A stretch of 64,000 nucleotides of DNA from Anaerolineae bacterium (GTDB taxonomy: Bacteria > Chloroflexota > Anaerolineae > JACIWR01), in assembly GCA_024653325.1 (NCBI GenBank), contig JANLFX010000001.1, forward strand, positions 10,228-74,227, in the 5' to 3' direction. Position numbers and translations under genes: made by a program. The notes below the pieces were generated by a model, which searched no databases, was not told the origin of the DNA, and was given only the letters and a program-made list of their open reading frames with translations. Shown here piece by piece: positions 17,986-37,638 of the stretch. Positions within the stretch are counted from its first letter, which is position 1. Every line of letters begins with the position of its first letter.

Positions 17986-18906
17986 ATGTTTGAAATCGTT
18001 TTCCTCGGCACCTCGGCCTCGGCGCCATCAATACATCGCGGCCTGCCAGCAGCGATGGTTCTCCATCGCGAGTATCGCTTCCTCATTGACTGTGGCGAGG
18101 GTACGCAGCGGCAGCTTCTCAAGAGTGGTCTCGGCTTCCGCCGTCTGGATAAAATCCTCATCACTCACGGTCATCTGGACCACATCCTCGGCCTGGGAGG
18201 GTTAATATCCACGTTCAGCCGGTGGGAAACGATTGATACTCTGGAGATATATGGCGGAAGCCAGGCGCTGGACCGCGTGGAAGACCTGATTTTCGGGGTG
18301 GTGCTACGCGGAGCTAATCCTCCGATGCGCATTGAGTTCTTCGATATAGAACCCGGTGTGCTGATGGAAGATGAGTTCTTTCAGTTGCGAGCCTTTCCGG
18401 TCACCCACCGGGGGCCAGATTGTTTCGGCTATACTTTTGAGGAAAAGGCGCGGCGCCCGTTCTTGGTGGACAAGGCCGAGGCTCTAGGCGTGCCCGCCGG
18501 GCCGGAGCGCAGACAACTGGTGCAGGGCCAGTCCATCACCCTGGCCAATGGCCGGGTAGTTCATCCCGACGACGTGCTGGGACCACCGGTGCCAGGGGCG
18601 AAGTTGGTGTACGTGGGAGACGCGGCTCGCACCAGCGATCTGGTTGATGAGGTGCGGGGCGCTGATGCCCTGGTGATCGAGGCCACTTATCTGGAAGTCG
18701 AGGCCGAACTGGCCCGCGAGTTCGGCCACATCACCGCGGCCCAGGCAGCTAAACTGGCCCGCCGGGCCGGGGTCAAGCGCTTATATTTGACCCATATCTC
18801 CCGCCGTTATTCGGAGAAAGAGGTACTGGCTGAAGCCACCCCCATTTTCCCCGACGTGATCATTCCCCGCGATCTGGATCAATTCCGTATCGTCAAAGAA
18901 AAGTAA
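17986..18906 (+). CDS. rnz: Ribonuclease Z (tRNA 3-prime processing, MBL fold)
   Basis: [15 protein letters not shown] start, with the HxHxDH motif [12 protein letters not shown]. Confidence 0.85.
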
Positions 18907-18913
18907 GGCAGGC

Positions 18914-20140
18914 TTAAGTCTGTCTTACGTAATGCAGCATTCCCCGTTGGGCGAGGGCGGCGATGACCTCTATTCCCCAGCGACCAAAGCGTTTTTCTAA
19001 TGTGGCCAGCGGGGTGCGTCCGTCGCAGGCTTCCAGCACCTGGAGCATCTCGGGCTGGATGGGCACCACGCGATTGCCCCGCAGAAGCACGGGGCCGAAA
19101 GGCTCCATGCGCAGCTCGAGGTAGGTTGGCACAGGGCACCAGTCGGGGGAAAGGCGGATAGGGGGAGGTGTTTCGTCGGCGGTGAGGGGGCCACGCATGA
19201 GCGGGTCGCGCGGCGTGCCGCGAAGTTCGGAGAGAACATGACAGCCGCCGTGACAGCGGCTGAAGGCGGCGCAATGGTGGCAGGCAGGAGGAATAAGCGC
19301 GCGCCAGGATTGCATCTGCGGACTGTGCCATGCTTCCAGAAGCGAACCGGTCAGCAGGTTGCCACATACGGTGGTAGAATGGGTGCAGGGACGCAGGTCG
19401 CCCCACGGGCCGATGGCACAATAGGCTACTCCGGCAAGGCATCCCGAGGAAGAGGATGGCGTGAAGCATTGGGGAATGCAGTTGCCGAATTTGACCCGGT
19501 AGCCGTCTGCACGCAGGCGTTCTATCTCGGCTACGGCGGCCCGCAGTTCATTGGGGGTGGGTTCCAGGGGTGATGGCCGATCACAAAGCAGGCGGGCAAA
19601 GGACACCTTTACTCCCCATTCTGCTGCCAGCCGGGCTACTCCCGCCAATTCATCGAGATTCTGACGGTGGATTACCGTGCTCAGGCAAACTCTCAAACCA
19701 GAATTGATGGCATAGCGCAAATTGGTCATTGTCTCTGCGAATGAACCGGGTACACCGGTGAAAGCCTCGTGGGCGGCTGGTGTAATCCCATGTAAAGAGA
19801 TGAGTGCTACGTGAAATTGGGGCATGGCGCGCAGGCGCTGTACCAGCCAGGCGGGGCGCTCCCACAGGCCGTTGGTGAAAAGGGAGAAGGGCTGGCCGAA
19901 TTCCTCCAGCAGGGCGAGGATGGTCTCAAACTCGGAGTGCAATGTGGGTTCGCCGCCGCTGAGTTTGACCAAATGCGCGGCGGAGCATACCTGCTCCAGG
20001 ATGCGTCGCCACTCGCTGGCCGGAAGCGGCGGCCTGTTGCGTTCGTCCCGGAAGGGGTTAAAGCAGCCGGGACAGCGGTTAGAGCAGGCGGGGGTCAATT
20101 CCAGAGTGATAAGGGCCGGGCGGGAGAGCCAGTGGATCAC
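18914..20140 (-). CDS. Radical SAM/SPASM-domain peptide-modifying enzyme with a C-terminal PqqD-like (RRE) domain
   Basis: CX3CX2C motif CSNRCPGC near the N-terminus with GGEPTL. A Cys-rich SPASM region (CIPQC...CLAGVAYCAIGPWGDLRPC). The C-terminal about 95 aa, PEMLQVLEACDGRTPLATLEKRFG...IAALAQRGML, resemble the PqqD peptide-binding fold. The start overlaps the GNAT stop (ATGA). Confidence 0.75.
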   Translation of the reverse strand: MIHWLSRPALITLELTPACSNRCPGCFNPFRDERNRPPLPASEWRRILEQVCSAAHLVKLSGGEPTLHSEFETILALLEEFGQPFSLFTNGLWERPAWLVQRLRAMPQFHVALISLHGITPAAHEAFTGVPGSFAETMTNLRYAINSGLRVCLSTVIHRQNLDELAGVARLAAEWGVKVSFARLLCDRPSPLEPTPNELRAAVAEIERLRADGYRVKFGNCIPQCFTPSSSSGCLAGVAYCAIGPWGDLRPCTHSTTVCGNLLTGSLLEAWHSPQMQSWRALIPPACHHCAAFSRCHGGCHVLSELRGTPRDPLMRGPLTADETPPPIRLSPDWCPVPTYLELRMEPFGPVLLRGNRVVPIQPEMLQVLEACDGRTPLATLEKRFGRWGIEVIAALAQRGMLHYVRQT

Positions 20141-20661
20141 AGGAAACGCTCCAGCAGCAATTCGTCAATGTAACGGCCATCCAGGTTGAACTGCCGATAA
20201 CGGCGTCCGGTGACCCTGAAGCCGCGCCCGATGAAGAGGTTCAGGGCGCGTTCATTGATGGCAAAGATGGCAGCCGTCAGCTTCTCCAGGTGGGCCTCCC
20301 TTGAACCCTGGATGGTCTGGCGCAGCAGATGAGTGCCGATGCCGATTTCGCGGTACGGTTTGAGGATGCCGATGCCCACTTCGGCGGTGTGGCGGGCGAA
20401 GGGGCTCACCGTATCGGCGAAAGCGCGACACCAGCCAACAATACGCCCCTCACATTCGGCTACGAGCAGCAGTTTCCATCCGCTCCGGGGGATCATTCCC
20501 AGGGCCTCTTGCCATTCGGGGCCTGGCAAGAAACGCTCGGTCATCATGTACCGCCGCTCGCGGCACACGGCATCCACAACGGCGATGACCAGAGGGGCGT
20601 CGCTTGGCGCTGCCGGACGTACCACGAGAGGGCGGCCATCGCTGGTGGTGAGGAGTTCCAT
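20137..20661 (-). CDS. GNAT-family N-acetyltransferase
   Basis: 174 aa. The acetyl-CoA binding region IVGWCRAF...GIGTHLL is typical of GNAT. Confidence 0.75.
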   Translation of the reverse strand: MELLTTSDGRPLVVRPAAPSDAPLVIAVVDAVCRERRYMMTERFLPGPEWQEALGMIPRSGWKLLLVAECEGRIVGWCRAFADTVSPFARHTAEVGIGILKPYREIGIGTHLLRQTIQGSREAHLEKLTAAIFAINERALNLFIGRGFRVTGRRYRQFNLDGRYIDELLLERFL

Positions 20662-20670
20662 CGGGGGTTA

Positions 20671-20856
20671 TCAATCGCAGGCCGGGCAGTCGTTCTCGCC
20701 CTCTATTTCTTCGACCACGGGCAGGCTGTCGTCTGTCAGTTGAACCAGTTCCACGGCCGGCCTGGCCTGGGTGGTAGTGGGTCGAAAAAAGGAGAGGGCT
20801 GAAAACACGTCTTGCATAATGGACTTTTCCATTCGCTCTGGAGGTTTTGCCGTCAT
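20671..20856 (-). CDS. Candidate 61-aa RiPP precursor peptide ending in ...EEIEGENDCPACD
   Basis: ATG at 20854-20856 is preceded by a perfect AAGGAG SD 7 nt upstream. The ORF track extension to 20904 starts at TTG. The peptide is MTAKPPERMEKSIMQDVFSALSFFRPTTTQARPAVELVQLTDDSLPVVEEIEGENDCPACD. It lies 9 nt upstream of the GNAT gene on the same strand. Confidence 0.45.
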   Translation of the reverse strand: MTAKPPERMEKSIMQDVFSALSFFRPTTTQARPAVELVQLTDDSLPVVEEIEGENDCPACD

Positions 20857-20984
20857 TTTCCCGCTCCTTGTATCGGTGGGATGTGGTGGTCGTAGTGTGT
20901 TCAAGCAGGCGCTCGTTCTCTGCCACTGGTGGTGCAGGGAGCTGAGCTACCCGCTGCCTTTTCTCACAACTGGATTGCGATTTT

Positions 20985-21013
20985 ATTGTAGCAGATAATA
21001 CAGGGTCTGTCAA
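20985..21013 (-). promoter_or_regulatory. Consensus sigma70 promoter (TTGACA, 17 nt spacer, TACAAT) driving the peptide/GNAT/rSAM operon
   Basis: On the minus strand, TTGACA is the reverse complement of 21008-21013 and TACAAT the reverse complement of 20985-20990. Confidence 0.6.
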
Positions 21014-21025
21014 TAGGATGTGCTT

Positions 21026-21069
21026 CCTAAAAACACAAATGCGACGCACTTGAGAAGTGCGTCGCATTT
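21026..21069 (-). terminator. Intrinsic terminator of the upstream NTPase gene (14-bp stem AAATGCGACGCACT/AGTGCGTCGCATTT followed by GTGTTTTT)
   Basis: Perfect hairpin 19 nt after the TAA at 21088-21090, with a U-tract on the minus strand. Confidence 0.75.
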
Positions 21070-21087
21070 GATTGCTGGGGGTGGTTC

Positions 21088-23964
21088 TTAACCCCTGGCA
21101 TCCTCAATAGCGTGCTGAATTTCGTGGTGCATTCGCGTGGGACCCAGGGCGTAGCCCGCCTCTTCCTCGCCGCAGACCTTCTCCAGTTCCACGAGTGTCT
21201 CGGCGGGCAGGCCGCTGAGTAGCCGGTAGATGTAACCAGCGGTTGGCCCGATAGCACCGGCATCGGGTGCGAAGTGGTCGAAGTAGGCGAAGGCCTGCGT
21301 CCAGTGTCGTACTGCTTGTGCCCATTGCTGGCGCTTGTGGGCGATGTATCCCCGTCGCAGGGCGAGTTTGCCCAACACGTTCCAAAAAACCGGTGCCGGT
21401 TTCTCGATCTCCACGAAGCCAATGTCTTTTTGCAGGCGATAACGGTCGTCAATGGCTGCCCATGCCTGATCCACCCATTGCTCAGCCAGTTCGAGTTCAC
21501 CCCGCTCGAAGTGTAAGTGGGCCAGGTCTTCCATGACATCGAGCCGGGCCCGAAGTTTTTGCGGGGGCAGTCTGGCGATGAGCGTTTCAAAAAGGGATAT
21601 GGCTTTCTTCTCATACGGTTCGATCTCGGCCTGTTCCCGGTCCTGCCGGCGGTAGATGACCGCCCAGTCACGATAGAGCCGCGCTTGTTCTTCCAGGGCA
21701 GTTAGTTCCATAGCTATTTCAGGCACGACTTCCTGGAAAATGTGGAGTGCTTCCTGGGCGCGTTTTTCGGCTTCTTTCAGGAACGCATCGGCCCGTTCGA
21801 CGCTGTAGCGGTAGTGACGCCGGCGCGCCTGCTTGCGCAGGGTGCGCACCAGGGTGATCAGGGTCAGGCCCATCGTGCGTGCATCGCCGATTTCGCTCAG
21901 CATGGCCAGCGCATCACGACAGGGTTGCTCGGCGCGGTCTGGCTGGTCATTGTCAGCGTTGATCGCGGCGAATACGTTCAGGCTGGAGGCGGTGCCCCAC
22001 CGCGAGCCCGTCTCCCGGAAATGGTCCAGGCTGCGGGTGATATACTCGTCGGCGCGGTGAAAATCGCCCAGTTGGGCGAATACGAAGGCCAGGTTTCTTT
22101 CGGTACTGGCCAGTTCGTTGAGATCTCCCAGCTCGGACTGGTAGCGGATTGCCTCCCGATACTCGTCTCTGGCGCTGTTGTAATTCTCCAGCGAACGATA
22201 GATGTAGCCCCGGTCGCGGTGGGCAATGCCCAACAGCCACGCCCGCCGTTTTTTGTCAACCGGGTTATCCGGCTCATAGGGCGACAGAATCTCAATCGCC
22301 TGGCCGAGCAAATCCAGGCCCTCGTCCCATTCAGAGAGATAGCCTCGCGCTTCGCCCCGGTTCAACAGCAGTGCGCCCGTGAACAGAGGATCGTCGGGCG
22401 AACGGTCGAATGGTGGCTTCGTGTACTCCCAGATGCGATCGCTTAGCTCCCGTGCTTTCTTGAATTGACCCTGAGCCAGGTACAGGCGAATCCAGCGGAT
22501 GGCCGCGTCGCGGGCGATGCGGCGTTCCCAATCTCGCCGCGCTTCCGGGCTTCGACCCCGCAGGAGTTCGCCGAAAAAGCGTAACATCTCGTCGCGCAGG
22601 CGCATGGCCCGTCCGTATTCATGGCTCAGGATGGCTTCGTCGGATAATTCCTGGTAGGTGTGGAAACCGTCCGCCGGGTTGAGCAGCAGCTTGTAGTAAA
22701 GCCATTCCGGCGAGCCTTTTTCGTGGTATTCGAGGGCCACATTGCACACCGCTTCTTTTTCCACGGGTGAGCGGCCGGGCAGGATGTGTTGGTCCACCAA
22801 ATCGTACATCTTATCGTGCAGGAAAAGCAGGTCGCTCTCTTCACGGGTTTTGATGAAAGGCAGGTCCTGGGCTATTGCCAGCAGGTGAGTGCATTCTTCC
22901 TGGCTCCAGGCCGGGTACTCCGGGCGTGAAGCCAGGATTTTGTGCAGCAGTTCGGCGTTAAGGCCCTTGCGCATCCAGCCCATAAAGGGGATGATGAGGT
23001 CCAGGCCGTCTTGCAGGCGGGTCATCTCTTCCACCAGCCGTTGCTGGATGTCCTGTGTAGCCACGGCCAGAACGTCCTGCGGCAAGCGGGCGTTTTTGAC
23101 GATCAAAGCGGAGAAGAAAGCGTTGTTCAGGGGATCGCCCCCGGTCTTTTCGTGGATCGCGCGGGCATCATCGCGGCTGATCCTGGCTTCCCTGATTTGT
23201 GGGTTCACCTGTGCCAGGTCCTGGAAATAATCCGCCGTCTCATCCGGTGAAAAATTGCCTAGCCGAATCATCACGTGCGGGGAATCGGGGGCCGCCTCTG
23301 CCAAGGGTTTAGCTTCGCCCAGCACGGGGACAAATGTTTCCTGTAATTCAGCCCAAACCTGGGGTTTCTCCTGTTCCCGTCCGGCCAGGATCACCACCGT
23401 GTTTCTGAGTTTCGGGAGCACAGTGCGCAGCCAACTTCTGACCTCGATGCCCTGTTCTGCTAGGCCGAGAATGCTCTGAACTTCGTCCGGCTCATATTGA
23501 ACCAGTTCCAGGGTGTCGAAACGGAGGATCACACGGGTGTTCCTGGTGAAATCATTAAAACCCTGGACAAACAATTCGGCCAATTGAGCGCGTTGATCTT
23601 CAATGCCAGACTCGAACCAGCCATCCTGGCGTCGCTTTTCGAATTTTTCGCGCTGCTCCAGATAGGAGGAGAAGCAGCTGCGGTCCAGCCGGGATATGAT
23701 GCGCTCTTCGAGCCGGCTGTTGGACTGCACGTCCGTAAAGTAAAAGTCGAACAGGGGTAGAATTTTGGTCCGCTCGGCATTGGGACACTGTTCACGCAAA
23801 TGAGGCACTTCTGCCAGGAGGCGCGTTTTGCCCACCCCTGCCGGGGCGGTCACGTACACCACGCGCAATTCCCCATCCGCTTCAATGGCTGCTCGTAGCA
23901 TCTCGCATTCGCGCCTGCGGCCAATCAGTTTGCTGGTGCGTAGTCGGCCCCACTCCAATGTCAT
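21088..23964 (-). CDS. STAND-class P-loop NTPase (AAA_16/NB-ARC-like) with a long C-terminal TPR array
   Basis: 958 aa. LIGRRRECEMLRAAIEADGELRVVYVTAPAGVGKTRLL carries the Walker A, and the Walker B-like motif is VILRFDTLE. More than 8 TPR-like repeats follow (AHRDRGYIYRSLENYNSARDEYREAIRY...). Confidence 0.75.
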   Translation of the reverse strand: MTLEWGRLRTSKLIGRRRECEMLRAAIEADGELRVVYVTAPAGVGKTRLLAEVPHLREQCPNAERTKILPLFDFYFTDVQSNSRLEERIISRLDRSCFSSYLEQREKFEKRRQDGWFESGIEDQRAQLAELFVQGFNDFTRNTRVILRFDTLELVQYEPDEVQSILGLAEQGIEVRSWLRTVLPKLRNTVVILAGREQEKPQVWAELQETFVPVLGEAKPLAEAAPDSPHVMIRLGNFSPDETADYFQDLAQVNPQIREARISRDDARAIHEKTGGDPLNNAFFSALIVKNARLPQDVLAVATQDIQQRLVEEMTRLQDGLDLIIPFMGWMRKGLNAELLHKILASRPEYPAWSQEECTHLLAIAQDLPFIKTREESDLLFLHDKMYDLVDQHILPGRSPVEKEAVCNVALEYHEKGSPEWLYYKLLLNPADGFHTYQELSDEAILSHEYGRAMRLRDEMLRFFGELLRGRSPEARRDWERRIARDAAIRWIRLYLAQGQFKKARELSDRIWEYTKPPFDRSPDDPLFTGALLLNRGEARGYLSEWDEGLDLLGQAIEILSPYEPDNPVDKKRRAWLLGIAHRDRGYIYRSLENYNSARDEYREAIRYQSELGDLNELASTERNLAFVFAQLGDFHRADEYITRSLDHFRETGSRWGTASSLNVFAAINADNDQPDRAEQPCRDALAMLSEIGDARTMGLTLITLVRTLRKQARRRHYRYSVERADAFLKEAEKRAQEALHIFQEVVPEIAMELTALEEQARLYRDWAVIYRRQDREQAEIEPYEKKAISLFETLIARLPPQKLRARLDVMEDLAHLHFERGELELAEQWVDQAWAAIDDRYRLQKDIGFVEIEKPAPVFWNVLGKLALRRGYIAHKRQQWAQAVRHWTQAFAYFDHFAPDAGAIGPTAGYIYRLLSGLPAETLVELEKVCGEEEAGYALGPTRMHHEIQHAIEDARG

Positions 23965-23980
23965 TGTTGTCCTCCCGGTT

Positions 23981-24022
23981 AGTCAGCGAGTCAGCGAGTC
24001 GCCCATTCGCTATTCGCTATCC
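23981..24022. repeat. Short tandem repeats (GTCAGCGA x2.5; ATTCGCT x2) between and overlapping NTPase gene ends
   Basis: Direct repeats visible. The second set overlaps the stop of the 24010-25407 gene. Confidence 0.8.
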
Positions 24023-25407
24023 CGCCATTCTTGTACTTTTTCCCAAACAGACTTAAACGTGTCCTTTCCCACCACCTGACTCAGCCGTTGTTCCTGTCTG
24101 GAAAGGCGAAGCTCCAGGTTCTCCGCTACGCTGCGCAAATCCCACTGCATCTGCGGTTGCTTTCGGACCTGTTCGATGAACTGGCTCACCTGGATCACGG
24201 TTTCCTCCCTTTTTTCTTCCCTTTCGGCCCTGGAAATCCTGGCCGTCTGGGACTCCCCGCTGTGGTATAGCCACTCGGTCAGCCAGGCGTCGAAGTTGGC
24301 CGGGTACTTCTCCATCCATTCCTTGTACATCTCGGCGGCCAGCGATTGCCATTTGCGGTAACGTCTTGGTTCGCGCACGCGTAGATTGGTGGTCAGGATC
24401 TGGCGCACAGTCTCTTCGACCTTATCAGTGCGATTGTCTGTATCCCAGCGCACCAGTTGTGCATTCTTGAGGTCCAACACGGCGTTGATATAAAAGCCCC
24501 TATCCTGGCTGGCTGCCGGCAATTGTTCTCCAGCGTTGGCCAGCCGCTGTGCAAAATCACCCAGGGTAACGGCGTCCAGGCGGCGCAGGATAGAGGCGAT
24601 GAAGAGGATTTGGAGCAGGTCCTCCCGTCGCTCAGGAGGGAACTCTGCGCCCAAGCGACCCTGAATAACATCCCGTAAGATGATTTCGGCCACTGCCTGC
24701 CTGCTTTCCAGGTTATCCAGGTCACCATATCTCTGGGCATCAATCAGCACACGTACGCCGTGAGGATAGCCGTAAGTCTCCCGATAGATGGATTCTGCCT
24801 GGGGTGTAGGCTCCTGCCCGATCAGAGTATCTAACAGTTCCTGGATATCGTCCGGTGTGAAGGGAGATAGTTCTTCAGTTTTGGCAGCCTCGCGTAGCCG
24901 GTACAACGTCCAATAAAACGGATCTCGCCCGGCCAGCACGCTGACTGCACGCCTTCTCTGATAGAAAGCCCAGATAATCTCCTCCTGTAACCAGGCCGCC
25001 AGATCACGGCCCTCCTCCGTGTTCACCGCCAGTCGTTCGGTGGCATCAATCAGGAATAAGATGGTGTGTGTATCGGGCAGTTCTCCCAGGCAGGAGACAA
25101 GAGCCTGGGCGGATGAGATTTCTTGTTCTGCCAGGCCCTGGTCTGCGAGTTGGCTGGAGAATTGTTGCAGGATGGCTTTTTGCCGGTCGTGGGGAGGCAG
25201 GGTAGTGCAATCGAGAAACAGCACCGGGATGTTCCGCTGTTGTTTATACCGATGCTGCAGATGTTGGAGCAACCAACTCTTACCCATTCCGGTCACGCCA
25301 TATAAATTGAGAAGGCCCTGCCTTTGTTCAATGGCCTTCTCTATCAGGCTGATATATTCCTGGCGGTCGGCGAATTCTTTTGGTGAGTAGGGGATTTGAT
25401 CCGGCAT
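24010..25407 (-). CDS. P-loop NTPase (AAA_16-like ATPase domain protein)
   Basis: 465 aa. Walker A LYGVTGMGKSWLL and Walker B ILFLIDATE. No recognisable output domain. Confidence 0.65.
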   Translation of the reverse strand: MPDQIPYSPKEFADRQEYISLIEKAIEQRQGLLNLYGVTGMGKSWLLQHLQHRYKQQRNIPVLFLDCTTLPPHDRQKAILQQFSSQLADQGLAEQEISSAQALVSCLGELPDTHTILFLIDATERLAVNTEEGRDLAAWLQEEIIWAFYQRRRAVSVLAGRDPFYWTLYRLREAAKTEELSPFTPDDIQELLDTLIGQEPTPQAESIYRETYGYPHGVRVLIDAQRYGDLDNLESRQAVAEIILRDVIQGRLGAEFPPERREDLLQILFIASILRRLDAVTLGDFAQRLANAGEQLPAASQDRGFYINAVLDLKNAQLVRWDTDNRTDKVEETVRQILTTNLRVREPRRYRKWQSLAAEMYKEWMEKYPANFDAWLTEWLYHSGESQTARISRAEREEKREETVIQVSQFIEQVRKQPQMQWDLRSVAENLELRLSRQEQRLSQVVGKDTFKSVWEKVQEWRDSE

Positions 25408-25536
25408 GACTGCCTCCTCAGGGTATACAACGCAAAAGAAGTCGAAGGTATTGAGAGAGCTAGGATTCGCGTGATTTTAACTATTTTTTTATGAAATGAC
25501 CATAAGATATGGCAAAATTTGGTGTAAGCTATCCTC

Positions 25537-25565
25537 ATTTTACAACATTGAACAGGAATAGTCAA
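25537..25565 (-). promoter_or_regulatory. Sigma70-like promoter (TTGACT, 17 nt spacer, TAAAAT) for the 24010-25407 / 21088-23964 gene pair
   Basis: Found on the minus strand in the 241-bp AT-rich gap between NTPase genes. Confidence 0.4.
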
Positions 25566-25632
25566 TACCCATAGCTATCGGGAGGGTGGCAATTACCTGG
25601 CAGAAAGCTGGCTAAGTCTGACAGAAATGCGA

Positions 25633-25649
25633 AAGGTGCGTCGCACCTT
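25633..25649 (-). terminator. Hairpin AAGGTGCGTCGCACCTT overlapping the stop codon of the 25649-27943 gene
   Basis: Perfect palindrome using the same GTGCGTCGCAC core as the hairpins at 21037-21069 and 37610-37638. Confidence 0.45.
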
Positions 25650-27943
25650 CAGGCTGGCGGGATGGTCTCTTCCGGCATACTGGCGATAACCGCTGCCAGA
25701 TCCCGCTCATTGATGAGTGGGGAATTATTTTCCGCAAAGAGCGCGGCCCGGTGTTGGAACAGCCGGTCGAAGAAACGCACGATCTGGCGTGGTGTTTGGG
25801 CCCAGTAGGCCAACAGTTCCTCGCTGATGGCCCGTCCTTCCAGTTGGGGGGTGAAAAGCACATCGCGCCCCTTCACGGTCAGGCTGGTCGCGGCCGGCAA
25901 GCGTTGGTCAATCAGTTCGAGCAGCGGGCCTGGCTGCCAACGGATCGTGATGGTGTTCACCCAGCCGCCTTCCCTAGCCGAGGTGTTGCGCAAAACGGCC
26001 TCCAGTTCCTCCGGCAGGAACAGCACCCAGCGCAGCCAGGGTTGTTGCATGAAAGTGGGGCATTCCAGGAGAAGGCGGGCGCGATTCGCGTACTCGCTAA
26101 CATCAGTAAAAGGTCCCTTAGCCAGATTATCTACCAGTACATATACCTGTTCATAGCCGTTGGTGTTGGCCAGTTCGCGCAACGCGTTTAATTTCTCCTG
26201 GTAGTCATCCCGCCAGGGGTAAGCGGGCATCTGACCCAGACATCGTTTGGCTGCCAGCCCCAGGGCGTGAATGTATGTATCCAGGGACCACTCTTTTTTC
26301 TGTGGCCATTCGGTCAAATTCAGAATCAGGGGACGGGGGATGCAATGGGCGAGTTCATCGGCCAGCATGAGCAGCAGGGTAGTGGCCCCTCCCCCGCGGG
26401 GCGCGTAAACGATAGTGGAGGTCTGGCTGGTTCTCAGTTCTTCCAGGACATGGAAAGGATCGGAGAAGGCTCCCTGGAGTGAACGTTTGTCCAGGAATTC
26501 GGCACTGAGGCAGGAGAAGGCTTTATAATCAAAAAACGTGCTGGCGAATTGACGCATCCACTCGATAACCTGATCCCCCGACGCGGTCTTCACTTGCAGC
26601 TCGGCGGCGGCAGGGAGTTCTTTCCGCACAAATATCAGGCGCAAGGCGGCCCGTTTTCTCACTCGCCACGAAGGGTCGTCTCTGGCCACTTTTTTCAATA
26701 GCTCCTGGTCGTCAAAGTCGGGCTTTTTGCTGCAGGCCCGGTAGATTTCCAACAACCTGTCTGCCGCCAGCCAGCGTGCAAATCGTCCGCCCCTTTTCCC
26801 TTCGGTGTCCAGGCAGTCTTTCAGGTCCAAAGCGCCCTCGGTCAATGATGTCCAGCCGTATTTTCTGGCCCGTGCTTCCCAATCGGTGATGCTATCAGTT
26901 TCTGCCCAGCAGAGGAGGAGACTCCGCAGCCCGCGTAGTTGTTGAGCATACCCGTACTTTTCGTAGCCTTTCGACGCTGCCTGCCAGTTCTTTTCTAGAT
27001 TTTCTCGCTCTTGTCGCCAGCGCGGCTCGTGGATGGCCTTCTCGAATTCTTTCTCCTGCTCTATCCTGGGGATGAATTCCAGAAATGTTTCCTGGGCGCA
27101 GGCCAGGCGATAGCTCGCTTCCAATGGTTTCTTCTGAGGGATGTACAGGCCGAGCACGTGCCCCTCGCGTTTGTATTTCTCATAGTCATCCTTGATTTGC
27201 CGGATAGCCTCGTGTTCCTTTTCGACGTTATTCTCTTCCACGGCTCGCAGCAGTGCTTGCTCTTTCCGCTGGTCTCTGATGTTCTGAGCCGCCTGGTTCC
27301 GTTTCCACAGCCAGCGCAGCCCGGTGCTAATTAAGGCCAATAAACCAACCAGATAAGTCCCCCAGGGAATCGAATTGTACGAACGGCGCAGGATACCGGC
27401 CCACCATGCCTCGCGGCGAATGGTGAACGAGAGTTCTTGTGGTGCACTGACCGGCGGTGGTGAAATCTTGACGGTGAAACTGAAGGGCGCAGGGGCGTCC
27501 AGGTCTATTTGCTGGAGGTAAAGGTCTGTCTCGAAAGGCGCGTTGTCAGTGGGAGAGATAACTATCTGTCCGCTGAGGGGCTCCCCTTTGACAGATACCA
27601 GGCGCACCCCGGGTTGGCAGGAGATGATTAACACCGTAACGGGGGCGGTGGTGACGTCTCTGGCCCTGACAATTATGCGTTTATCGGGGTTCACCCCGCC
27701 CTCGCGCCAGCCCAGGAAGCGGGGATAGGTCAGGTGAAGCGTTCCACCGTTGTCGAGGGCAACGTCTCTGTGTTCCACCGCCTGGTAGGGGACGACGGTC
27801 CGGTAGAATGCAAACAAAAGAATCCCGATCACAGCTACAACGAGGAAGGCAACTATCCAGGAAATGGACACCCAGATGTCTCGGGGTGCATTGTGTGGGG
27901 GAGCGGTCACGGAGTCCGTTCTGGTGGGTCTTTGTTCGTTCAT
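25649..27943 (-). CDS. Membrane-anchored protein with a degenerate P-loop NTPase-like domain
   Basis: 764 aa with two TM helices flanking an about 110-aa extracytoplasmic segment. The cytoplasmic part contains IVYAPRGGGATTLLLML, Walker A-like but lacking Lys, and VYVLVDNL. Confidence 0.55.
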   Translation of the reverse strand: MNEQRPTRTDSVTAPPHNAPRDIWVSISWIVAFLVVAVIGILLFAFYRTVVPYQAVEHRDVALDNGGTLHLTYPRFLGWREGGVNPDKRIIVRARDVTTAPVTVLIISCQPGVRLVSVKGEPLSGQIVISPTDNAPFETDLYLQQIDLDAPAPFSFTVKISPPPVSAPQELSFTIRREAWWAGILRRSYNSIPWGTYLVGLLALISTGLRWLWKRNQAAQNIRDQRKEQALLRAVEENNVEKEHEAIRQIKDDYEKYKREGHVLGLYIPQKKPLEASYRLACAQETFLEFIPRIEQEKEFEKAIHEPRWRQERENLEKNWQAASKGYEKYGYAQQLRGLRSLLLCWAETDSITDWEARARKYGWTSLTEGALDLKDCLDTEGKRGGRFARWLAADRLLEIYRACSKKPDFDDQELLKKVARDDPSWRVRKRAALRLIFVRKELPAAAELQVKTASGDQVIEWMRQFASTFFDYKAFSCLSAEFLDKRSLQGAFSDPFHVLEELRTSQTSTIVYAPRGGGATTLLLMLADELAHCIPRPLILNLTEWPQKKEWSLDTYIHALGLAAKRCLGQMPAYPWRDDYQEKLNALRELANTNGYEQVYVLVDNLAKGPFTDVSEYANRARLLLECPTFMQQPWLRWVLFLPEELEAVLRNTSAREGGWVNTITIRWQPGPLLELIDQRLPAATSLTVKGRDVLFTPQLEGRAISEELLAYWAQTPRQIVRFFDRLFQHRAALFAENNSPLINERDLAAVIASMPEETIPPA

Positions 27944-28002
27944 GCTTTGCTCCAGTGCTTGAATCCCCCCGCAGGTTCTGCATCTGTGGGGGTCATTGTT
28001 GA

Positions 28003-29577
28003 TCAGTCTGTGCTGGCGTTAGCTGTATGGAATAGGGCGTAACCGCCGCCGCGTTTGGTATGCAGAAACATTGGGCGTTTGGGATCGCGTTCGATCTTCT
28101 TGCGTAATCGGGAAACCAGGGAGTCAATGGCTTCATCTCCTACGTATTTTTCCTGGGGGTAGATGGCTTCGTAGATTTCCTGGCGGCTGCGAAAGACCCC
28201 TGGGGTCCGGTAGAGAAAGTGGAGGAAATCGAATTCCCGTTCGGTGAGGCCCTCGACCGTGCTTTCGCCGACGTAGATGCGGCGGTGTGCTTCATCTACG
28301 CGCAGGGGGGGAATCAGCCGCCCGAAACGTTTCTCGAATTCGTTTTCTATCTCAGGGAGCAGCCGATAGTTCAGCTTACTCCCCGGGTCTGGATTCTGCT
28401 GGCAGTGATGCTCCAGCAACAGGTGACCTAGCTTGAGCATGTTACGCGGTGAACCGTAGGCTCGCTCGACAAGCCACTGATCGAATTTGCCCCGACTCTC
28501 GGTGTCGGCAAGCTGGTCCATACTCTGGATCTTGCCTGCGCTGAACGCCATCAAGCGGGCCTGCAGCAGGTTTGTCAGGCCCTCGTCTGACCATTCGATG
28601 CACCAACTGGAGATCAGATCGGTGCGGAATAGATGTTGCTCTCGAAATGGTGAATACAGCACCTGGGGTAAGAAGAATTTGAAGGCCAATCCCGCCTGAG
28701 ATCCTGGGGCATCATTGGTATGCCGATGAAGCACGCGCAACTCGCGGGTGAGAGGACTCAGTACTTCGGTCAGAAAATCTGGGTTTTCGGCAGTCAGGTG
28801 GTGTTCGTCAATGCCATCGAGGAGCACGTACACGGCCCGCGCGCCGATGGCCTGGGCCAGTTCGGTCAGTTCATTGAGAAGTAAATGGGTAGGATCCGTG
28901 CTGGACGGGGATAGGGGGGCGGTATCCGCCAGGGTGAGCCATACTGCCATCTGGGTATCGGTTGGCACGTTCCCTGGTGGCAGAATCTCTCGCAGTTGCC
29001 TTTCCCGGATGGCCTGTTCGATGATTGTGATGTCCGCCTGAGTGTCTCGAGGTAACGCTCCCAGGGCGCGCAGGTGGCGCAATACCTGATAAGGGGAGAA
29101 CAGCGATGGATAGTAGTCCTGGACCAAGGCGCGCAGCAGGGCACGCTGCTCGATGGGCATCGCATAAAAGCGAACCGGTTCCTTGGTGATGGTGGTCCAG
29201 ATAGCGGCCAGGCCCGCACGTAAAATTTGCTCGAGGTGATGATGTAGTGAGACCGTTCCTGATAATTGGTCCAGCCAGCCGAAGTCAGTGTATGGCACGG
29301 CCAGAACCTCAGCAGACAGGTCATTGGGCAGGCATTCGCGCTGGATCATGAGTCGGCAGGCGGTTTTTCCTGCGCCACGGGCGGCGAAGACGAAGTTGGT
29401 GCGCGGATCTGCCGGGTCACCTACGATTTGATCAAAAAATGGAGGGCGAATGAAATAGGTTTTGAGTTCGGTTTCCCGCTCAGCCTCCACGGTCGCGAAG
29501 GGGTTTTGCCCGTTATGAAACCCTTGCTGGGCCAGCCATTTTTGCAGAGGACTTATAACTTTTGCTTGTCTGTCCAC
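28003..29577 (-). CDS. P-loop NTPase fused to a C-terminal OmpR/PhoB-type winged-helix DNA-binding domain
   Basis: 524 aa with a GTG start and AGGAGG SD. Walker A FAARGAGKTACRLM and Walker B VYVLLDGIDE. The C-terminal trans_reg_C-like segment is REFDFLHFLYRTPGVFRSRQEIYEAIY...GGGYALF. Confidence 0.65.
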   Translation of the reverse strand: MDRQAKVISPLQKWLAQQGFHNGQNPFATVEAERETELKTYFIRPPFFDQIVGDPADPRTNFVFAARGAGKTACRLMIQRECLPNDLSAEVLAVPYTDFGWLDQLSGTVSLHHHLEQILRAGLAAIWTTITKEPVRFYAMPIEQRALLRALVQDYYPSLFSPYQVLRHLRALGALPRDTQADITIIEQAIRERQLREILPPGNVPTDTQMAVWLTLADTAPLSPSSTDPTHLLLNELTELAQAIGARAVYVLLDGIDEHHLTAENPDFLTEVLSPLTRELRVLHRHTNDAPGSQAGLAFKFFLPQVLYSPFREQHLFRTDLISSWCIEWSDEGLTNLLQARLMAFSAGKIQSMDQLADTESRGKFDQWLVERAYGSPRNMLKLGHLLLEHHCQQNPDPGSKLNYRLLPEIENEFEKRFGRLIPPLRVDEAHRRIYVGESTVEGLTEREFDFLHFLYRTPGVFRSRQEIYEAIYPQEKYVGDEAIDSLVSRLRKKIERDPKRPMFLHTKRGGGYALFHTANASTD

Positions 29578-29661
29578 CGCTGTTGCCTCCTGGGTCTATC
29601 AATCCCCCTGCCTATTTGTATTCTACCATAGTTTACTCTTGGGGGCAATAGTGGTGGGCGA

Positions 29662-29686
29662 CTGGTTGCTGGTTACTGGTTGCTGG
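29662..29686. repeat. Tandem heptamer (CTGGTTG) x3.5 upstream of yhhQ
   Basis: The same heptamer array occurs in-frame inside the AddB-like CDS at about 781-805, where it encodes ISNQQPV. Confidence 0.8.
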
Positions 29687-29724
29687 AATTCTCCTTGACC
29701 AGCGTTTGGTTTTGGAGTAGAATA

Positions 29725-30441
29725 ATGACCATGAGTCAGGCAGAATCTTTTAGGTATCGTTATTTCGATCTGATCATGGCCCTGTTCGTTGCCGTGTTAT
29801 TGATCAGTAATATCGCTTCGGCGGCCAAGATTGTGAACCTGGGCTTGCCGGTACTTACTTTCGACGCTGGCACACTGCTTTTCCCGGTGAGCTACGTCTT
29901 TGGTGATGTGCTGGTCGAGGTGTACGGCTATCGCCATTCACGGCGAGTGATCTGGATGGGCTTTTTCTGCGCAGCCCTGCTCAGTCTGACGCTGGCCGTG
30001 GTACGCTGGTTGCCCGGTGACCCGCAGTGGATCAGCCAGGTGGGCACGGAGAAATTTGACGCAGTGCTGGGTACGCTGGCCAGCGGGCGGATTATCGTGG
30101 CCAGCCTGGTTGGTTATTTCATGGGAGAGTTTTCCAATGCGGTGATCATGGCCCGGATGAAGGTTCTCACGCAAGGCCGCTGGCTGTGGTTGCGTACTAT
30201 CAGCAGCACGCTGGTGGGCGAGGGGGTGGATACGCTGCTATTTGTGTGTATCGCTTTCCTCGGCGTATGGTCACCCGCGCTCCTGGTCAGCATTATCGTC
30301 TCCAACTACGTGTTCAAATGCGGTCTGGAAGCGGCGGTCACTCCGCTGACCTATCGGGTGGTTAATTTGCTGAAACGAGTTGAAGGGGTAGACGTGTACG
30401 ATGTGCACGTGGATTTCAATCCGTTCAGGTTGAGCGTGTGA
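29725..30441 (+). CDS. yhhQ: Queuosine-precursor transporter, YhhQ/COG1738 (DUF165) family
   Basis: ATG 29725 lies 7 nt after GGAG. Polytopic protein with the family motif FPVSYVFGDVLVEVYGY. Confidence 0.7.
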   Translation: MTMSQAESFRYRYFDLIMALFVAVLLISNIASAAKIVNLGLPVLTFDAGTLLFPVSYVFGDVLVEVYGYRHSRRVIWMGFFCAALLSLTLAVVRWLPGDPQWISQVGTEKFDAVLGTLASGRIIVASLVGYFMGEFSNAVIMARMKVLTQGRWLWLRTISSTLVGEGVDTLLFVCIAFLGVWSPALLVSIIVSNYVFKCGLEAAVTPLTYRVVNLLKRVEGVDVYDVHVDFNPFRLSV

Positions 30442-30450
30442 AGGATCAGC

Positions 30451-31416
30451 ATGTCTGAAGTGCAGGACCAGGATTATTTCCCAGAGGAAGCGGGTTGGCC
30501 AGAAGATCACCGTTCGGGCTTCGTAGCGGTTATCGGCAAACCTAACGTGGGCAAATCCACGCTGATGAACGCTTATTTGGGGCAGAAAGTGGCTATCGTC
30601 TCGGCCAAGCCCCAGACCACGCGGCGGCGCTTGTTGGGCATTCTGACTCGTCCCGAGGCCCAGATAATTTTCGTGGACACCCCAGGTATTCATCGGCCAC
30701 AACACAAATTGGGCGAGTTCATGGTCCAGACCGCGATCCAGGCTATCCCCGATGCGGATGAAATCCTCTTTGTGGTGGACGTTTCGACTCTGCCCGGTGA
30801 TGAGGATCGGCAGATAGCGGCCCTCATCGCTGAACACGAGCGCATTCCAGTTGTTTTGGCTTTGAACAAGATGGATCTATTGCCACCCGAGAAGGTGCAA
30901 TTGCACACCAATGCTTATTTTGATCTAGTTCGCTACGACGATTGGATGATGCTTTCCGCCACGCGGGGAGACAATCTGGACAAATTGATGGCCCGTATCA
31001 TTGCCCATCTGCCGCCTGGCCCGCGCTATTATCCGGAGGATCAGGTCACCGACCAGACTGTACGGGCCATTGCCGCTGAGCTTATCCGCGAACAGGTGCT
31101 ACGTTTTACTCACCAGGAAGTGCCTCACGCCGTGGCTGTCCTGGTGGATGAGTTCAAGGAACGATCCGCCAATCTGACCTATATTCATGCGACCGTGATA
31201 GTTGAGCGGGACTCACAAAAGGGCATCCTCTTGGGCGAAGGAGGGCGGATGATCAAGCGGATCAGCACGGCGGCACGCCAGGAGATCGAGCGGTTGGTAG
31301 GCACGCAGGTTTACCTGGAGCTATGGGTTAAGGTCTGGAAAAAGTGGCGCAAGGATGAGGCCGATTTACGGCGGCTGGGTTACGCCTTGCCCCAAGAGGA
31401 AAAATTCGGAAGATGA
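30451..31416 (+). CDS. era: GTPase Era
   Basis: G1 GKPNVGKST, G3 DTPGIH, G4 NKMD, and a C-terminal KH domain. Confidence 0.9.
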   Translation: MSEVQDQDYFPEEAGWPEDHRSGFVAVIGKPNVGKSTLMNAYLGQKVAIVSAKPQTTRRRLLGILTRPEAQIIFVDTPGIHRPQHKLGEFMVQTAIQAIPDADEILFVVDVSTLPGDEDRQIAALIAEHERIPVVLALNKMDLLPPEKVQLHTNAYFDLVRYDDWMMLSATRGDNLDKLMARIIAHLPPGPRYYPEDQVTDQTVRAIAAELIREQVLRFTHQEVPHAVAVLVDEFKERSANLTYIHATVIVERDSQKGILLGEGGRMIKRISTAARQEIERLVGTQVYLELWVKVWKKWRKDEADLRRLGYALPQEEKFGR

Positions 31417-37609: not shown

Positions 37610-37638
37610 GTGCGACGCACCTCTCAGGTGCGTCGCAC
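37610..37638 (+). terminator. GC hairpin GTGCGACGCACCT-ctca-GGTGCGTCGCAC after hdrA2
   Basis: 12-13 bp perfect stem 17 nt after the TGA. No U-tract. Confidence 0.45.

Follow-up and report, generated by a model that had tools for sequence, protein, structure and literature searches.

The window analysed here, a 64-kb stretch of DNA from an Anaerolineae metagenome-assembled genome, carries four consecutive genes for nucleoside triphosphatases (NTPases), named P1 to P4 in the following, which are directly followed by a peptide operon. We estimate at roughly 0.55 the probability that these four genes form the sensor and regulator core of a conserved Chloroflexota system whose cargo is a cysteine-terminated peptide together with a radical-SAM/SPASM maturase, an assessment which, like all functional statements made below, rests on comparative genomics. 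The quartet consists of two pairs, namely an active and a dead ATPase of the Sll1717 type (P1 and P2) and a NOD-only and a NOD-TPR protein of the STAND class (P3 and P4). The whole is apparently an undescribed six-gene system of Chloroflexota, and searches of the literature on Sll1717, FxSxx-COOH, STAND proteins combined with radical SAM, AAA_16 combined with peptides made by ribosomes and modified after translation (RiPPs), and nSTAND/EAD7 turned up no description of this gene set. An earlier note on this DNA had placed four same-strand genes here, and the listing of open reading frames (ORFs) agrees with it in coordinates and strand:

29577 to 28003, minus strand: P1, 524 aa, GTG start
27943 to 25649, minus strand: P2, 764 aa
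25407 to 24010, minus strand: P3, 465 aa
23964 to 21088, minus strand: P4, 958 aa

The evidence that ties these genes to one another and to the peptide operon is their linkage across genomes. Word-indexed homologue searches with P1, P2 and P3 returned close orthologues only (59-100% identity), and in close relatives the same four genes occupy the same chromosomal setting at 59-86% identity. Distant relatives were sought by an exhaustive search of cluster representatives and by pattern scans of genomes and metagenomes. A P1-anchored pattern scan of GTDB species genomes, based on an alignment of ATPase domains, yielded 52 loci, whose six-frame ORFs were searched with profiles. In 24 of these 52 loci a protein of the Sll1717/DS-41-type family to which P1 and P2 belong (termed S), usually with a winged helix-turn-helix (wHTH) domain, is followed in order and on one strand by a second S paralogue (present in most), a P3-like and a P4-like gene. 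By their labels 22 of the ordered loci belong to Chloroflexota, one is unclassified and one is assigned to Dojkabacteria, and S-family singletons occur in Alphaproteobacteria, Actinomycetota, Desulfobacteraceae, Myxococcota and Planctomycetota. An independent, P4-anchored scan of metagenome contigs gave 80 loci, near-duplicates included, in which P3 lies directly 5' of P4 in 49 of the 52 informative loci and an S protein lies 5' of P4 in 29 of 31, with two or more S proteins in 21 of these 31. A radical-SAM gene was found 3' of P4 in at least 29 of 42 informative metagenome loci, the counts for radical-SAM and wHTH being lower bounds that reflect the few seed sequences used (six for radical SAM). 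Gene calls in the fetched loci are greedy stop-to-stop ORFs, with starts and some overlaps that are approximate.

Since both the gene order and the radical-SAM adjacency are conserved, the link to the peptide operon is conserved as well. The tie to this operon, which the earlier note had suggested from position, is thereby substantiated, since two scans with independent anchors trace the linkage down to protein identities of about 25-35%. The scattered singletons that the note had set against conserved linkage are clearly not what was found, the same order recurring in both scans. A fortuitous adjacency of unrelated regulators or ATPases and a peptide operon could draw on the fact that the two NTPase families are mutually unrelated and that one locus, L001, lacks the peptide operon at this site, but the recurrence of order and strand in two independent scans, over dozens of distinct loci and down to about 25% identity, as well as a fusion of P3 and P4 in locus L016, make it exceedingly improbable, and the neighbourhood counts effectively refute it. 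The single locus labelled Dojkabacteria, L033 (JBMCLZ010000097.1), is a 3.3-kb contig binned as Candidatus Dojkabacteria that carries an S protein with wHTH, a second S protein and P3, and it is the sole cluster in another named phylum; mis-binning or horizontal transfer could account for it.

P-loop domains were assigned with Pfam and NCBIfam hidden Markov models (HMMs) and defence models with PADLOC-DB v2. P1 belongs to the NCBIfam family NF047389 (P-loop ATPase, Sll1717 family), with 82.7 bits against a cut-off of 75 over aa 27-396, and is not a DS-41 equivalog, reaching 197.9 bits against the anti-phage equivalog model NF053860 (DS41_1), whose cut-off is 370; to E. coli DS-41 itself it aligns with 23% identity over 410 columns (E 2e-24). 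Its catalytic motifs are intact, with Walker A ARGAGKT (core RGAGKT) and Walker B LLDGIDE. The winged-helix fusion that had been noticed in the first gene is confirmed by a Trans_reg_C match at aa 444-515 (64.5 bits, E 9.5e-18), and solved structures of many OmpR/PhoB/YycF regulators match the region with their effector domains:

28033 to 28308, minus strand: wHTH DNA-binding domain of P1 (aa 424-515), from Pfam, NCBIfam and PDB sequence matches

Models and structures of response regulators match this effector region alone (aa ~422-517), and P1 has no receiver domain by Response_reg. Among orthologues no part of P1 is better conserved than the wHTH (85% identity). When the ATPase domain of P1 was searched against 1.8 billion cluster representatives, 1261 matches were obtained at E <1e-3, and of the 149 best representatives 68, among them each of the best 30, have the same C-terminal wHTH. 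The AlphaFold 2 (AF2) model of P1, with a mean predicted local distance difference test (pLDDT) score of 48.6, was not used for a fold search.

P2 is a divergent relative of the Sll1717 family and not a scored member, as its 49.5 bits against NF047389 lie below the cut-off of 75 and, like its 53.2 bits against NF053860, come from the C-terminal half only. It can be aligned with P1 over 160 residues (26% identity) and in the P-loop region. For both proteins Pfam offers just a weak 'ORC-CDC6-like' N-terminus, and neither matches any of the AAA_16, NACHT or NB-ARC models; neither Pfam nor NCBIfam offers a model specific to P2, P3 or P4. P2 is a hydrolysis-dead, membrane-anchored paralogue of P1 with an extracytoplasmic Ig-like domain. 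The degenerate Walker A (GGGATT) pointed out in the earlier note indeed lacks the lysine and is, like the Walker B counterpart VDNLAKG (LDGIDE in P1), invariant in nine orthologues. The membrane anchor and extracytoplasmic loop, likewise read from the sequence before, reappear in the AF2 model as two hydrophobic helices around a beta-sandwich, and the full layout comprises a transmembrane helix at aa ~24-49, the Ig-like ectodomain at 56-177, a second transmembrane helix at ~194-215, a helical domain at 240-437 and the pseudo-ATPase at 476-754. In this model residues 30-437 have pLDDT values of 70-88 and the ATPase-like part lies below 50; a Foldseek search against the PDB returned generic Ig-like sandwiches only. 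The pseudo-ATPase region shows 69% conservation among orthologues and is therefore under selection. In the nearest subclades the S protein with wHTH has canonical Walker motifs, and the acidic pair of Walker B is missing from its partner (e.g. DNVDG, DGLNN, DNISN).

The second pair is of a different kind. P3 exceeds the Pfam cut-offs for AAA_22 and NACHT (27.6 vs 26.7 bits for NACHT) and stays just under that for AAA_16 (30.9 vs 32.6 bits), and no domain beyond the NTPase matches was found in it, in line with its earlier description as a bare NTPase. P4 passes the AAA_16 cut-off (34.7 vs 32.6 bits), and the TPR array that had been ascribed to it is recovered by TPR_12 at E 5e-16:

P4, minus strand: STAND NOD at aa ~9-435 (AAA_16) and TPR sensor array at aa ~560-900 (TPR_12)

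Walker A, a Walker B of the form D-x-T-E and the GxP motif of STAND proteins are conserved in both. In P3 these are Walker A GMGKS and Walker B D121, with G40, G42, K43 and D121 invariant in the family, and G213-x-P215; in P4 the family invariants are G43, G45, K46, T47, D150, T151, E153 and G276-x-P278. The proline of the GxP motif is invariant in both families, its glycine is invariant in P4 and kept in at least 90% in P3. An hhalign comparison of the NOD modules of P3 and P4 gives a probability of 99.2% (E 1e-19, 372 columns), so that P3 (NOD only) and P4 (NOD plus TPR) are, judged by profiles and motifs, paralogous STAND proteins with predicted intact catalytic sites. Neither P3 nor P4 belongs to the LAL/MalT class, as there is no LuxR/GerE match and P4 reaches 30.7 bits against the 45-bit cut-off of TPR_MalT.

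The earlier note had ascribed an AAA_16-like P-loop to all four genes, which is wrong, and four related AAA_16 paralogues were ruled out, as hhalign assigns a probability of 2.8% to a relationship between the S family and the P3 family; the HMMs and hhalign instead divide the genes into two unrelated NTPase families, one pair each. Two architectural variants were seen in the P3-P4 pair: P3 and P4 are fused into a single 1605-aa protein in L016 (5010-9824), and in L011 (14354-17179) and L074 (7136-9961) P3 has 942 aa and consists of two NOD modules in tandem.

The cargo lies 3' of P4, where the order in the window is terminator, promoter, 61-aa ORF, GNAT gene and radical-SAM/SPASM gene:

20985 to 21013, minus strand: peptide-operon promoter, TTGACA-17-TACAAT with TG, near consensus (scan; conserved in L004 and L006)
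20674 to 20856, minus strand: candidate precursor peptide of 61 aa ending in ENDCPACD (translation)
20137 to 20661, minus strand: GNAT acetyltransferase (Pfam; homologues adjoin the cluster in L004, L007, L011 and L049)
18914 to 20140, minus strand: radical-SAM/SPASM enzyme, PqqE- or mycofactocin-maturase-like (MftC-like) (Pfam, NCBIfam)

The enzyme carries both Radical_SAM (63.4 bits) and SPASM (32.7 bits) and adjoins a small ORF whose core motif is conserved, which makes the arrangement a radical-SAM/SPASM cassette of the RiPP type; the enzyme probably modifies the small cysteine-tailed peptide. Its orthologues adjoin the NTPase cluster in L004, L007, L008, L009, L011, L021, L039, L049 and many metagenome loci. 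Elsewhere P4 is followed by a PapB/nif11-maturase-like radical-SAM gene (L016, L017, L019, L020, L029, L040, L044-L046) or by a TIGR04053-like one (L012), so that the cargo spans at least three radical-SAM subfamilies while the NTPase module stays constant. Between P4 and a radical-SAM gene of the window type there is always an ORF of 60-73 aa ending in C-x(0-2)-C-[DNK]; the C-terminal motifs include CPACD, CACD, CTCN, CDCACK and CCN, and LSFF-like and VELV-like leader motifs are shared by these ORFs. Six such cysteine-tailed ORFs were located, the one in the window (20674-20856) and the following five:

L004, 7396-7680: small Cys-tailed ORF
L007, 9159-9362: small Cys-tailed ORF
L009, 18716-18919: small Cys-tailed ORF
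L021, 17531-17716: small Cys-tailed ORF
L039, 19792-20013: small Cys-tailed ORF

In L007, L009 and L039 the P4 stop is overlapped or directly adjoined by the small ORF, and P3, P4, peptide and radical-SAM gene therefore probably form one operon in these loci; the terminator after P4 and the separate peptide promoter are therefore a feature of the window's lineage. No conserved exporter or protease was found near the pairs of precursor and radical-SAM gene, and the product may therefore act inside the cell, for example as a cofactor-like molecule. In L044 (from 20717) and L046 (from 20242) the PapB-like radical-SAM ORFs have an N-terminal extension containing EDCDCDCACA, similar to QCDCACK, the C-terminal core of the separate precursor in L021; this may reflect an in-frame fusion of precursor and maturase or an ORF extended by mistake.

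That P3, P4, peptide and radical-SAM gene appear as one operon in most relatives could also mean that P3 and P4 assist the peptide pathway as accessory proteins, for instance as a scaffold or chaperone, driven by ATP, for the precursor or product, and that P1 and P2 alone are the regulators. NTPase-TPR proteins are annotated in other radical-SAM peptide systems (FxsT, HaaT), to which P3 and P4 show weak local matches. These matches, however, fall far short of membership: P3 reaches 19.3 of the 300 bits required for FxSxx_TPR, and P4 reaches 30.1 of 1125 for HaaT, in the TPR region only. The replacement of the radical-SAM subfamily next to a constant NTPase module can be accommodated by an accessory role, although one module found with three maturase subfamilies speaks against a specific enzyme partnership. 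Furthermore, L001 has P3 and P4 without an adjoining peptide operon, and to our knowledge radical-SAM/SPASM maturases need no NTPase-TPR partner. An accessory role is thus regarded as unlikely.

The transcription signals divide the four genes into two units:

29620 to 29648, minus strand: promoter of the P1-P2 unit, TTGCCC-17-TAGAAT with extended -10 TG (consensus scan)
27966 to 27992, minus strand: GC-rich hairpin without U-tract in the 59-nt P1-P2 spacer (-14.5 kcal/mol, z -2.15)
25634 to 25648, minus strand: weak hairpin directly 3' of the P2 stop (-11.8 kcal/mol, z -0.89), containing GTGCGTCGCA
25586 to 25623, minus strand: array of four Pho-box-like direct repeats, TGTCAG / AGCCAG / TGCCAG / TGCCAC (read from the sequence)
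25537 to 25565, minus strand: promoter of the P3-P4 unit, TTGACT-17-TAAAAT (consensus scan)
21036 to 21070, minus strand: terminator after P4, 16-bp stem with U-tract (-27.6 kcal/mol, z -6.98)

A split into two units had been proposed before, and it stands because the P2-P3 spacer (241 bp in the window, 190-375 nt among relatives), the promoter within it and a terminator-type palindrome are all conserved. The TTGACT-17-TAAAAT promoter that the earlier note had placed between the pairs was recovered by the consensus scan and is conserved in four of five orthologous loci, with both hexamers kept in the window, L003, L004 and L006. The hairpin that it had placed at 25633-25649 is present at 25634-25648 but is weak. 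Upstream of P1 the promoter block TATTGCCCCCAAGAGTAAACTATGGTAGAATAC is nearly invariant among the window, L001, L002 and L003, and the terminator after P4 is conserved in L004 and L006.

OmpR/PhoB winged helices bind TGTCA-like direct repeats of 11-bp periodicity head-to-tail, and the Pho-box consensus is of the same type. The four repeats upstream of P3 begin at 25623, 25613, 25602 and 25591, that is, at spacings of 10, 11 and 11 bp, and the array ends 20 nt 5' of the -35 box. It is unique within the 64-kb window and conserved in L003-L006, and arrays of TG[TC][CA]A[GT] at 11-bp spacing also stand 5' of P3 in L007, L009 and L010, whose P1 homologues are 32-35% identical; in L106 there are four CGTCAT repeats at 11 bp. 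A three-repeat regular expression had 37 matches in 1.95 Mb of loci, 17 of them in the short stretches 5' of P3, compared with about 12 in total in shuffled sequence. The loci bearing arrays have in common the recognition-helix signature EA-x-DSL-x-x-R-x-R-x-K in the wHTH, and the others have different helices. The array at 25586-25623 is hence proposed as a candidate operator to which the P1 winged helix would bind. At 20985-21013, the target suggested for P1 in the earlier note, no repeat array is recognisable; the conserved one is found upstream of P3 instead.

Several smaller observations concern these signals. The hairpin between P1 and P2 may be an element of mRNA processing or stability that sets the P1:P2 ratio. 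The palindrome GTGCGTCGCA/TGCGACGCAC forms the hairpins after P4 (21036-21070), after P2 (25634-25648) and after an ORF ending at 37593 (37610-37638), is present again after P2 and P4 in orthologous loci, and looks like a lineage-specific terminator or REP-like motif. Just 5' of the P1 promoter, at 29661-29687 on the minus strand, CCAG occurs four times at 7-bp spacing (CCAGCAACCAGTAACCAGCAACCAG); this core resembles the GCCAG repeats 5' of P3, its periodicity being wrong, and the counterpart in L003 is rich in GCCAGCCAG, with nothing similar in L001. A scan of positions 18000-31000 against Rfam returned no family.

Put together as a mechanism, P2 would relay an envelope signal through its Ig-like ectodomain, pair with P1 and control the ATP-dependent assembly of P1. 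The assembled, ATP-bound P1 oligomer would bind the 11-bp-periodic repeats head-to-tail and thereby control transcription of P3 and P4, on a transcript which in most relatives, and presumably also ancestrally, would carry the precursor and radical-SAM gene; in the lineage of the window a terminator and a separate strong promoter would have been inserted between P4 and the peptide genes. P3 and P4 would form an ATP-driven STAND hetero-oligomer. Its TPR arm would detect a ligand, perhaps the peptide or the product, and act as the gate of the peptide pathway. The overall logic would be that of a SARP/AfsR-like pathway-specific regulator divided over several proteins, and the previous reading of an NTPase switch with wHTH output holds.

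A number of points weigh against this regulatory reading. In L001, which keeps all four genes, HrcA-GrpE-DnaK takes the place of the peptide operon. Recognition of the array was confined to the clade of the window, to L007, L009 and L010 and to their relatives, and a generic search for 11-bp-periodic hexamers 5' of P3 in all loci was insensitive, with results mostly no different from shuffles; the operator claim is therefore restricted to the clade of the window, L007, L009, L010 and a small number of other loci. No repeat array was found at the peptide promoter of the window, and this promoter is itself close to consensus, which makes direct control of the peptide operon by P1 conjectural in this organism. 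The binding of P1 to the array is a prediction, the roles given to P3 and P4 are pure inference, and the AF2 models are too poor to support any claim of interaction. In addition, domains on S paralogues of other clusters (TIR, CHAT, metallophosphatase, Schlafen, EAD7, kinase) are more typical of immunity systems.

These domains vary from cluster to cluster on the partner or on a third S paralogue. A membrane anchor like that of P2 is found in L009, L010 and probably L011, TIR in L008 and L039, CHAT in L080 and metallophosphatase in L077 and L106, and EAD7 and HEAT occur as well; in a few clusters the first S protein ends, in place of the wHTH, in a Ser/Thr kinase (L039, L044) or a Schlafen domain (SLFN_AlbA_2, L040). 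According to Kaur et al., swappable effector and adaptor domains define NTPase-gated conflict systems, which are enriched in multicellular phyla including Chloroflexi (PMC7159879), and a radical-SAM enzyme with a peptide effector has been reported by these authors in one class of conflict systems (PMC7159879; PMC8195603). The serious, though less probable, rival is therefore that the locus is an immunity or conflict system in which P3 and P4 are STAND sensors for pattern recognition, the S ATPases deliver the output and the radical-SAM-modified peptide is a toxic or signalling effector. The output would be a transcriptional switch here and TIR, caspase-like or phosphoesterase effectors in other clusters, and the peptide would be released upon infection or non-self contact, an account that overlaps with the regulatory model in that P1 could still be a transcription factor.

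Besides the domain repertoire and the enrichment of such NTPase systems in multicellular phyla, two likenesses favour immunity. The ATPase of P1 is homologous to DS-41 ('AAA2', WP_033812887.1, 502 aa), which conferred phage protection on E. coli as a single-gene system in the DefensePredictor study (PMC13092281), and STAND proteins with TPR and without effector resemble Avs-type sensors. Against this, P1 falls far below the DS-41 equivalog cut-off (198 vs 370 bits), the S proteins of the window have no recognisable effector domain, and the DNA-binding wHTH is the commonest output domain across clusters. In the PADLOC-DB v2 scan P1 and P2 had no match and P3 and P4 matched at chance level only (E 0.004-0.018). 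No relatives of the P1 ATPase were found in viral contigs or phage genomes, and plasmids gave five E. coli DS-41-like matches only. Moreover, the cluster is set among housekeeping genes whose synteny is kept in relatives at 59-86% identity, with the Vut_1 transporter, Era and fumarase on one side in relatives and window alike, and no integrases or other defence genes were seen around the locus. The defence island considered in the earlier note is hence not what the surroundings and the lack of PADLOC hits indicate. Phrased as a pathway, the immune account would tentatively have paired STAND sensors of filamentous Chloroflexota act through an active and a dead ORC/Cdc6-like ATPase to turn on production of a radical-SAM-modified cysteine peptide as effector, and the dead ATPase could be the bearer of swappable domains (membrane Ig-like, TIR, caspase-like or phosphoesterase). 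If it were true, this cascade would represent NLR-like bacterial immunity of a new type, its effector a peptide and its output a RiPP in place of a fused nuclease or NADase.

The regulatory model invites comparison with several known systems. SARP regulators combine Trans_reg_C, NB-ARC and TPR, are often linked to RiPP clusters and bind direct repeats through their wHTH (PMC12224297). With the SARP/AfsR proteins of Streptomyces the present system shares an OmpR-type Trans_reg_C, a STAND ATPase and a TPR sensor, the position next to secondary-metabolite clusters including RiPPs and the direct repeats near a target promoter (PMC12224297). In contrast to them, the parts are here distributed over four polypeptides, the wHTH is C-terminal and fused to an Sll1717/ORC-like ATPase instead of NB-ARC, and the dead membrane-anchored paralogue and the NOD-only STAND protein have no SARP counterpart. 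No BTAD (PF03704) match was found in the four proteins at E up to 1, and they are thus not SARPs. OmpR/PhoB regulators share the fold family of the DNA-binding domain and the TGTCA-like direct repeats of 11-bp periodicity 5' of the regulated promoter, whereas here there is neither a receiver domain nor a histidine kinase, and activation would proceed through the ATPase domain and a pseudo-ATPase partner and not through phosphorylation.

With DS-41 and Sll1717 proteins the ATPase core is held in common (NPF..E, Walker A RGxGK[ST]A, Walker B hhhhDxhDE, FKFFLP, GSPR), but DS-41 is a single-gene system without wHTH or conserved partner genes, and the relatives outside Chloroflexota are singletons. 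The NTPase-centred conflict systems with a peptide plus a radical-SAM or metallopeptidase module (Kaur et al., 2020) and the FxSxx-COOH systems with the NB-ARC/TPR protein FxsT are similar in having multi-NTPase operons, active and inactive paralogues, variable effector or adaptor domains, a small fast-diverging peptide with a modifying enzyme and an enrichment in filamentous phyla. They differ in that MoxR, vWA, VMAP and FtsH are missing here, the NTPase families are others, P3 and P4 fall short of the FxsT and HaaT models, and the present gene set was not found in those papers (PMC7159879, PMC8195603). The Avs/AVAST proteins share a STAND NOD with a TPR-type sensor, and Avs1B is given in the DefensePredictor supplement as remotely homologous to DS-41 (PMC13092281), whereas P3 and P4 have no N-terminal effector and no PADLOC match and belong to a multi-gene system with transcription-factor output.

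Two aspects of the comparison are new, namely the connection of the DS-41 family, anti-phage in E. coli, to a transcription-factor architecture of ATPase plus wHTH, and a conserved multi-gene module that occurs with at least three subfamilies of radical-SAM peptide maturases at more than 60 distinct loci. Should the regulatory model be correct, the regulator, the candidate operator and the membrane sensor would provide a handle to switch on silent RiPP clusters of uncultured Chloroflexota, and SARP-like logic would have been built from separate proteins including a pseudo-ATPase partner. Under either account the cluster could serve as a beacon in genome mining for radical-SAM peptide loci.

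Three further observations were made around the peptide operon. The 5' leader measures about 300 nt in L006 (8575-8872) and about 130 nt in the window (20857-20985) and in L004, and the first ~40 nt after the -10 box are conserved (AAATCGCAATCCAGTTGT) without a match in Rfam. In one metagenome lineage a serpin (Pfam E ~1e-120) replaces the radical-SAM gene after P4 (L090 6157-7527, L099 13351-14721, L105 4081-5451). Finally, a metallo-beta-lactamase-fold gene on the plus strand (17986-18906) is convergent to the radical-SAM gene and conserved in L004, and it shows tRNase Z-like matches beside a weak, sub-threshold match to the anti-Pycsar Apyc1 family (23.6 vs 50 bits).

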